Source: Candidatus Heimdallarchaeota archaeon B3_Heim (GTDB taxonomy: Archaea; Asgardarchaeota; Heimdallarchaeia; Hodarchaeales; Hodarchaeaceae). From it: DNA of 32,000 nt. Below are positions 7,063 through 7,146 of this stretch, piece after piece. Made by a program: the position numbers and the translations under genes. Location of the stretch: NCBI GenBank assembly GCA_003144275.1, contig NJBF01000001.1:161902-193901 (forward strand), given 5' to 3'. The first letter of the stretch is position 1. Every line of letters begins with the position of its first letter. The notes under the pieces are model-generated. The model was not told the DNA's origin, did not search any database, and saw only the letters and a program-made list of their open reading frames with translations.

Positions 7063-7146
7063 ATGATGAATACTGACCTATACTGATGATGGGTTCATAA
7101 TCGGACACCACTTGAACCTATTTATGATGTCCATGTACCTCACTGA
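7063..7146 (+). ncRNA. Box C/D guide sRNA candidate 2; D' guide complementary to SSU rRNA helix 34
   Basis: C ATGATGA 7063-7069, guide ATACTGACCTATA, D' CTGA 7083-7086, 10-bp internal stem (7088-7097/7113-7122), C' ATGATGT 7124-7130, 12-nt guide, D CTGA 7143-7146. Confidence 0.85.

Follow-up and report, generated by a model that had tools for sequence, protein, structure and literature searches.

The spacer between rpl10e and pth2 in the 32,000-nt stretch of DNA analysed here (the window) carries an 84-nt element on the forward strand (7063-7146), which we read, with a probability of about 0.72, as a double-guide box C/D sRNA that directs 2'-O-methylation of two guanosines of the host 16S rRNA, G1142 and G986, located on the two strands of helix 34, through the mechanism proposed below. 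The predicted Gm residues would fall on exactly the two decoding-centre guanosines of helix 34 that are modified in yeast, plants and humans. The comparative data point to a genuine and previously undescribed family of Hodarchaeales C/D sRNAs, with methylation of both helix-34 guanosines as the predicted function. Literature searches found no catalogue of Asgard box C/D guide RNAs, a class that is essentially undescribed.

The element was originally predicted from a complete succession of box C, guide, box D', hairpin, box C', guide and box D, and this order is present in the spacer as claimed. The features of the locus, all on the forward strand, are the following:

6353..6871, +, rpl10e, ribosomal protein L10e/L16p (Pfam PF00252 Ribosomal_L16/L10e, E 3e-30)
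7055-7059, +, 5' half of the terminal stem, UCACC, with 7147-7151 as proposed partner (by inspection)
7063-7069, +, box C, AUGAUGA (ATGATGA); RUGAUGA or GUGACGA in all 21 homologues
7070-7082, +, D' guide, AUACUGACCUAUA, 13 nt, of which 7070-7080 pair with 16S 1140-1150
7083-7086, +, box D', CUGA (CTGA), invariant in 21 species
7088-7122, +, internal hairpin between D' and C', stem 7088-7097 / 7113-7122 with a 15-nt loop at 7098-7112 (folding prediction)
7103-7109, +, loop motif GGACACC, complementary to 16S 1016-1022
7124-7130, +, box C', AUGAUGU (ATGATGT), invariant in 21 species
7131-7142, +, D guide, CCAUGUACCUCA, 12 nt, of which 7131-7141 pair with 16S 983-993
7143-7146, +, box D, CUGA (CTGA); CCGA in the two most distant members of the genus
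7147-7151, +, 3' half of the terminal stem, GGAGA, with an alternative small hairpin with 7155-7159
7225..7602, +, pth2, peptidyl-tRNA hydrolase (Pfam PF01981, E 3.8e-40)

The element starts 191 nt past the rpl10e stop codon and ends 78 nt ahead of pth2, and a Pelota-like gene lies further 3' of pth2. Upstream of rpl10e, and divergent from it, is an archaeal histone-fold gene (5905-6153, reverse strand; Pfam CBFD_NFYB_HMF, E 1.9e-15). With boxes C and D near its ends, internal D' and C' boxes and guides of about 12 nt (13 + 12 nt in the window, 12 + 12 in most relatives), the 84-nt RNA has the make-up of a box C/D sRNA, with a D'-C' spacer of 37 nt. Across the 3.9-Mb genome, a strict C/D'/C'/D pattern has two matches and a looser one four, and the reversed-sequence genome used as a control has none for either version. 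A scan of the whole window at Rfam gathering thresholds returned only a tRNA.

BLAST searches with a 111-nt region against 60 relatives found one copy each in 20 of 21 same-genus genomes, with identities of 72-99%, and in 19 independently fetched rpl10e loci the sRNA is located 75-290 nt downstream of rpl10e. In the alignment of the 21 homologous sequences, flanks and hairpin stem vary, as does most of the loop, while boxes D' and C' are fixed, as are the guide cores, ACUGACCUA for D' and CAUGUACCUC for D, across the 21 species. Boxes and guides are thus kept in relatives, where a lack of conserved boxes had been named in the original prediction as grounds for abandoning it. At the level of sequence, this pattern of conservation marks a structured guide RNA, as opposed to coding or neutral DNA.

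From the 21 homologues a covariance model was built, which recovered exactly the genus copies and had no hit in the 62 other class members searched. With the filters off, the model identified a diverged copy in one genome of the sister family, G022 (L168:1498-1581). This copy follows rpl10e at a distance of about 225 nt and has a terminal stem GGCGC/GCGCC, a box C AUGACGA, an internal hairpin, a box C' AUGAUGA and a box D CCGA. By family, the sRNA is present in 20/21 genomes of f1 and in one of the two genomes of f2. A further 61 Heimdallarchaeia genomes (class-wide set of 83 genomes) yielded neither guide, and the exact D' guide accompanied by a C box was absent from about 378 other Asgard genomes (400 searched, phylum-wide for the D' guide only). 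When the covariance model and three guide patterns were applied to sets of 83-400 Asgard genomes, only background hits without C boxes appeared outside the order. Among the 400 Asgard genomes searched, the sRNA is confined to the order Hodarchaeales.

The helix-34 target of the D' guide had been proposed from a common archaeal 16S sequence, and it is indeed found in the 16S gene of the host (G000:C88:1616-3089, minus strand), where UAGGUCAGUAU occurs once, at positions 1140-1150 of that 16S, in the context AACGGUAGGUCAGUAUGCCCC. Positions 7070-7080 of the window are the exact 11-nt complement of this segment, which belongs to the 3' strand of helix 34. The D' guide duplex comprises 11 Watson-Crick pairs plus one G·U, and the N+5 rule selects, as had been predicted, the G that opens AGGUC; this is G1142 (about 1197 in E. 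coli numbering), the partner of C7078. When scored against 16S and 23S, the D' guide was matched by 77 of 5000 shuffled guides (about 0.015). The host 23S is missing from the assembly and that of the most distant genus member was used instead, in which the D' guide has an additional 9-bp match. In 15 of the 21 genus members the D' guide reads AAACUGACCUAAA or AUACUGACCUAAA, and only 9 to 11 contiguous base pairs are formed there. The D' guide of G022, UAACUGACCUGCU, is followed by CUGA and selects the same G, with 9 Watson-Crick and 2 G·U pairs on the 16S of the window's host, on which both G022 guides were scored; the sister-family 16S is absent from the assemblies of both MAGs.

The second guide had been left without a target in the original prediction, and it can now be assigned to the 5' strand of the same helix. 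The D guide (7131-7141) pairs with 16S 983-993 (GAGGUGCAUGG) through 10 Watson-Crick pairs and one G·U, and its N+5 nucleotide, C7138, forms a Watson-Crick pair with G986, directly 5' of UGCAUGG. This target emerged only after G·U pairs were allowed, no perfect complement of the D guide being found in the host 16S, elsewhere in the assembly or in the 23S of a relative, and the score of the guide against 16S and 23S was matched by 96 of 5000 shuffled guides (about 0.02). The four 16S sequences at hand for the genus do not differ in either of the helix-34 segments targeted, and a published 16S alignment equates G986 with E. coli 1051 and G1142 with about 1197. That both guide matches fall in one helix is far less likely by chance than either match alone.

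An alternative that we regard as unlikely, though worth weighing at this point, is that only the D' guide directs methylation, the D guide having another target (23S, a tRNA or an RNA reading GAGGUACAUG) or acting as a chaperone of helix 34. The D guide carries an invariant U opposite a G, where a C would pair better, which hints at an extra constraint or another target; in addition, the host 23S is unassembled, and the D guide of the sister family (GCGUGCACUACU in G022) has diverged and fits helix 34 poorly, as judged on the 16S of the window's host. Pyrobaculum, moreover, has conserved guide-target pairings that lack methylation (PMC6009581). Against these points, a search of the 3.9-Mb assembly for the D guide complement with at most one mismatch returned only the sRNA gene itself and scattered hits. 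Across 16S and 23S, the D guide matches helix 34 best, and its N+5 nucleotide forms a Watson-Crick pair there. This match falls on the very strand to which the D' target is paired, and such a target space is very small.

In the double-guide reading that we prefer, the D' guide would bind the 3' strand of helix 34 and direct 2'-O-methylation of G1142, and the D guide would bind the 5' strand and direct that of G986. As the guides address opposite strands of a single helix, we propose that the sRNP would probably serve also as a transient folding chaperone of the 3' major (head) domain. In Nanoarchaeum equitans, sR17 and sR15 are sRNAs of which each one alone binds the two strands of a 16S helix by base pairing, and methylation combined with a chaperone role was proposed for them (PMC4644070). 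The Hodarchaeales sRNA resembles them in its four boxes, two guides of about 12 nt, N+5 selection and bridging of distant rRNA segments that are partners in the folded rRNA. It differs from them in its target, helix 34 instead of helices 28 and 30, in its 37-nt D'-C' spacer with a covarying stem and a near-invariant loop in place of a short K-loop, and in its host, a mesophilic Asgard archaeon.

The hairpin between D' and C' is supported by covariation, as 7 of the 8 modelled pairs have changed on both sides and 91.7% of the cells are paired, a result reached by none of 500 shuffles and lost in shifted registers, which collapse. The spacer of 37 nt and the covarying 10-bp stem bear out the original remark that an 84-nt RNA with a stem between D' and C' exceeds the usual archaeal length. 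In archaeal sRNAs, a K-loop at C'/D' is the norm (PMC6009581), and the 84-nt RNA departs from the short K-loop and the length of about 50-70 nt of archaeal C/D sRNAs. The long stemmed spacer is a variant architecture and no ground for excluding the RNA from this class. The D'-C' stem would convert the archaeal K-loop into a stem-closed motif, which is expected to form a K-turn instead; in G007-type sequences, the stem abuts CUGA and three nucleotides then precede GAUGU, an arrangement that can be read as canonical K-turn geometry.

Within the hairpin loop, GGACACC is kept while its surroundings drift: of the 21 aligned homologues, 20 have this motif and one reads GGACACA. In 16S, the complementary GGUGUCC is found at a single site, 1016-1022, which falls between the segments targeted by the guides, and the contacts of the loop and of the two guides on 16S would be collinear and antiparallel. 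The loop of G022, GACUUAAC, differs and is complementary to the adjacent 16S 1024-1031. On the other hand, GGUGUCC is found also three times in the 23S of a relative, the G022 spacer has a second 8-mer match at 16S 645, and the extensions of the loop-16S pairing into the flanks are no better than chance. A third antisense contact of GGACACC with 16S, which would be comparable to the accessory pairing of yeast snoRNAs, is thus a tentative proposal that we find somewhat doubtful. A separate observation concerns the subgroup of the window, in which another part of the loop (7096-7106, CAUAAUCGGAC) is the exact 11-nt complement of 16S 216-226; this pairing was rejected as a conserved function, as that part of the loop varies and the 16S segment is conserved (three species).

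The loop contact forms part of a broader scheme that we hold to be quite unlikely, in which the RNA is a tripartite antisense sRNA whose guides hold the two strands of helix 34 while the GGACACC loop holds the helix 36/37 segment (16S 1016-1022), so that it would chaperone the 30S head and install the Gm pair present in every eukaryote sampled; the stem-closed K-turn and the accessory pairing would then represent, in the order closest to eukaryotes, a pre-eukaryotic step towards snoRNA architecture. The complementarity of the G022 loop to 16S 1024-1031 is as this scheme predicts.

The double-guide sRNA that we favour can be compared with eukaryotic snoRNAs through the nucleotides that it selects. 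Yeast 18S reads TGGTGGTGCATGGCCGTTCTT at 1266-1286 and ATAACAGGTCTGTGATGCC at 1422-1440 (PMC3940700 Table 1), from which G1271 directly precedes UGCAUGG and G1428 opens AGGUC. Gm1271 (snR40; human Gm1328) and Gm1428 (snR56; human Gm1490) are located in helix 34, in the decoding centre, and have Arabidopsis equivalents (PMC2794176 Table 1). Both sites are present in three plants, human and yeast, and no equivalent of either is given for P. abyssi (PMC11542601 Table 2). As originally claimed, G1142 is the base homologous to yeast Gm1428 and human Gm1490, according to the tables of PMC3940700 and PMC2794176, and motif alignment in yeast numbering makes G986 the equivalent of yeast Gm1271 and human Gm1328.

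The Hodarchaeales sRNA thus addresses the same helix-34 nucleotide as yeast snR56 and human SNORD25 (U25), Gm1428 / Gm1490, but has no detectable sequence or covariance-model similarity to them; these snoRNAs are, in addition, distinct from the snoRNA for the other helix-34 site, whereas the Hodarchaeales sRNA would cover both. With yeast snR40 and human SNORD32A (U32A) it shares the G 5' of UGCAUGG (Gm1271 / Gm1328). The D' guide of snR40 serves Gm1271 and Gm562 and its D guide serves 25S Um898, whereas the Hodarchaeales sRNA uses its D guide for the shared site and has its partner guide on the opposite strand of helix 34. We classify the sRNA as a functional analogue of snR56/SNORD25 and snR40/SNORD32.

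Other archaea also direct sRNAs to this helix. The D guide of Pyrobaculum calidifontis sR32, UACUGACCUGCG before AUGA, places N+5 on the first G of AGGUC, at about E. coli 1197, like the Hodarchaeales D' guide, and the published 16S at its target reads GGCAGGUCAGUAUGCC (Dennis 2015, PMC4644070, Additional files 1 and 3). Unlike the Hodarchaeales sRNA, sR32 uses its D guide for this site, is compact (about 50 nt), has a different second guide and belongs to an unrelated lineage. The guides of Sulfolobus acidocaldarius sR6 and Methanopyrus kandleri sR120 pair, like the Hodarchaeales D guide, with the 5' strand of helix 34, GAGGUGCAU, but by our own count their N+5 nucleotide is the G one nucleotide 5' of G986, and they have no guide for the 3' strand of the helix. 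As sRNAs of Pyrobaculum, Sulfolobus and Methanopyrus all aim there, helix 34 is a recurrent target.

The stronger part of the original claim, that the RNA is a counterpart of SNORD25/snR56 by homology, is not supported. A cmscan search at E<=10 over 6872-7300 found no eukaryotic methylation-guide family (SNORD25, snR56, snR40, SNORD32) and only weak generic archaeal C/D models (<=12.6 bits, E>2), the phyletic range is limited to Hodarchaeales, and other archaea hit helix 34. The U25 guide string quoted with the original prediction gave no match in a literature search.

Common descent with SNORD25/snR56 and, through the second guide, with SNORD32/snR40, by which the eukaryotic Gm pair would come from a Hodarchaeales-like ancestor, is therefore unproven and, because of the narrow phyletic range, not favoured, and we judge it decidedly improbable. 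It has in its favour the placement of the host in the Hodarchaeales, the order proposed as the closest archaeal relative (sister) of eukaryotes. The stem-closed C'/D' motif and the length of 84 nt are eukaryote-like, the same two nucleotides are modified in yeast, human and Arabidopsis, and neither is given as methylated in P. abyssi (PMC11542601 Table 2). The evidence on the other side includes the lack of any SNORD25, snR56 or snR40 Rfam match at E<=10 and the distribution of the guides, neither of which is found in the 61 other Heimdallarchaeia genomes, nor the exact D' guide in any of the about 378 other Asgard genomes. Moreover, P. calidifontis sR32 picks the same G, Sulfolobus sR6 and Methanopyrus sR120 pick the G adjoining the second site, and Gm1271 is served by a D' guide in snR40 and its equivalent by a D guide in the Hodarchaeales sRNA. 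Guides of 12 nt evolve fast, and the identity of their targets says little on descent. The shared targeting may represent convergence on a functional hotspot, for which the likelihood is no lower than for ancestry; with helix 34 already a target in other archaea, functional convergence is as well supported. Confirmation of the sites would make it possible to test whether some of the eukaryotic core pattern of rRNA methylation is older than eukaryogenesis, and the family is, on the strength of these predictions, of interest for snoRNA evolution.

With respect to the protein partners, the genes for fibrillarin and Nop5 are adjacent on one contig and two L7Ae-family genes are found in the genome; the sRNA would assemble with L7Ae, Nop5 and fibrillarin. 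Public sequencing runs contain no more than parts of the stretch. Among them, one contig from an RNA library matches 7109-7146 apart from 4 differences and diverges past box D, and because of these differences and its unlike continuation we assign it to the locus of a relative. Two runs labelled as metatranscriptomic gave coverage of rpl10e only. No TATA-like element was seen by eye about 26 nt upstream of the C box, and the promoter and terminator scan was based on bacterial consensus sequences and was uninformative. The sRNA would probably derive from the rpl10e transcript or its 3' region by co-transcription, followed by trimming.

The terminal flanks of the relatives differ in sequence yet complement each other on inspection (CUCC/GGAG, AAA/UUU, AACC/GGUU, GACAAGCU/AGCUUGUC). 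The resulting terminal stem has 2-8 bp across species, and in the subgroup of the window the spacing to box C is longer than in a canonical K-turn. Right after box D, a GGAG-N5-CUCC hairpin (7147-7159) is kept, with changes in its loop, in the five closest genomes; it competes with the terminal stem and could act as a processing or termination signal.

This small hairpin, the position between two translation genes and the lack of an evident promoter of its own would all suit a cis element of the rpl10e-pth2 transcript, either an L7Ae-binding K-turn regulator or a processing or terminator structure. We give such an explanation very little credence, as a K-turn does not need two invariant single strands of 10-12 nt, spaced by boxes at 12 nt and complementary to rRNA. 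A chance box-like motif, for which the AT-rich spacer and the commonness of short boxes could be invoked, has a negligible probability and is effectively refuted by the comparative sequence data, given the identity of 72-99% over 21 species, the invariant functional elements and the covarying stem, together with the zero matches in the reversed-genome controls.

The sRNA is not the only C/D-like RNA of this genome. A second long one is found in the window at 3236-3329 (forward strand), with a 10-bp terminal stem (GAAGGAUCC... / ...GGAUCCUUUC), a box C AUGAUGU, a D' box CCGA, a 28-nt spacer, a C' box GUGAUGA and, as a variant D box, UAGA; its long-spacer layout is shared with the helix-34 sRNA. 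Other C/D candidates from the pattern scan are G000:C4:31575-31642 (+), C10:76240-76333 (+) and C21:62704-62787 (-), and the D' guide of the C4 candidate, CGGUUUUACCGG, fits the 530 loop of 16S. All four C/D candidates of the genome pattern scan have D'-C' spacers of at least 23 nt that are able to form a stem, and the scan found none of the compact K-loop type. The recurrence of a stem-closed C'/D' motif among these candidates suggests a lineage-specific sRNP architecture nearer to that of eukaryotic snoRNAs.

Some peculiarities were also observed in the rRNA genes of the genus. Stretches of some 300 nt from the 3' domain of 23S (Rfam LSU_rRNA_archaea 2721-2973) stand alone at G000:C65:12431-12734 and 3498-3825, and similar isolated pieces are found in G001, G007, G010 and G013, once or twice per genome and without the rest of the 23S. 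The 16S gene of G007 (L046, G007:C9:1695-3919) spans 2225 nt, compared to 1474-1476 nt in two other members of the genus, an excess that implies an insertion or intron of about 750 nt.
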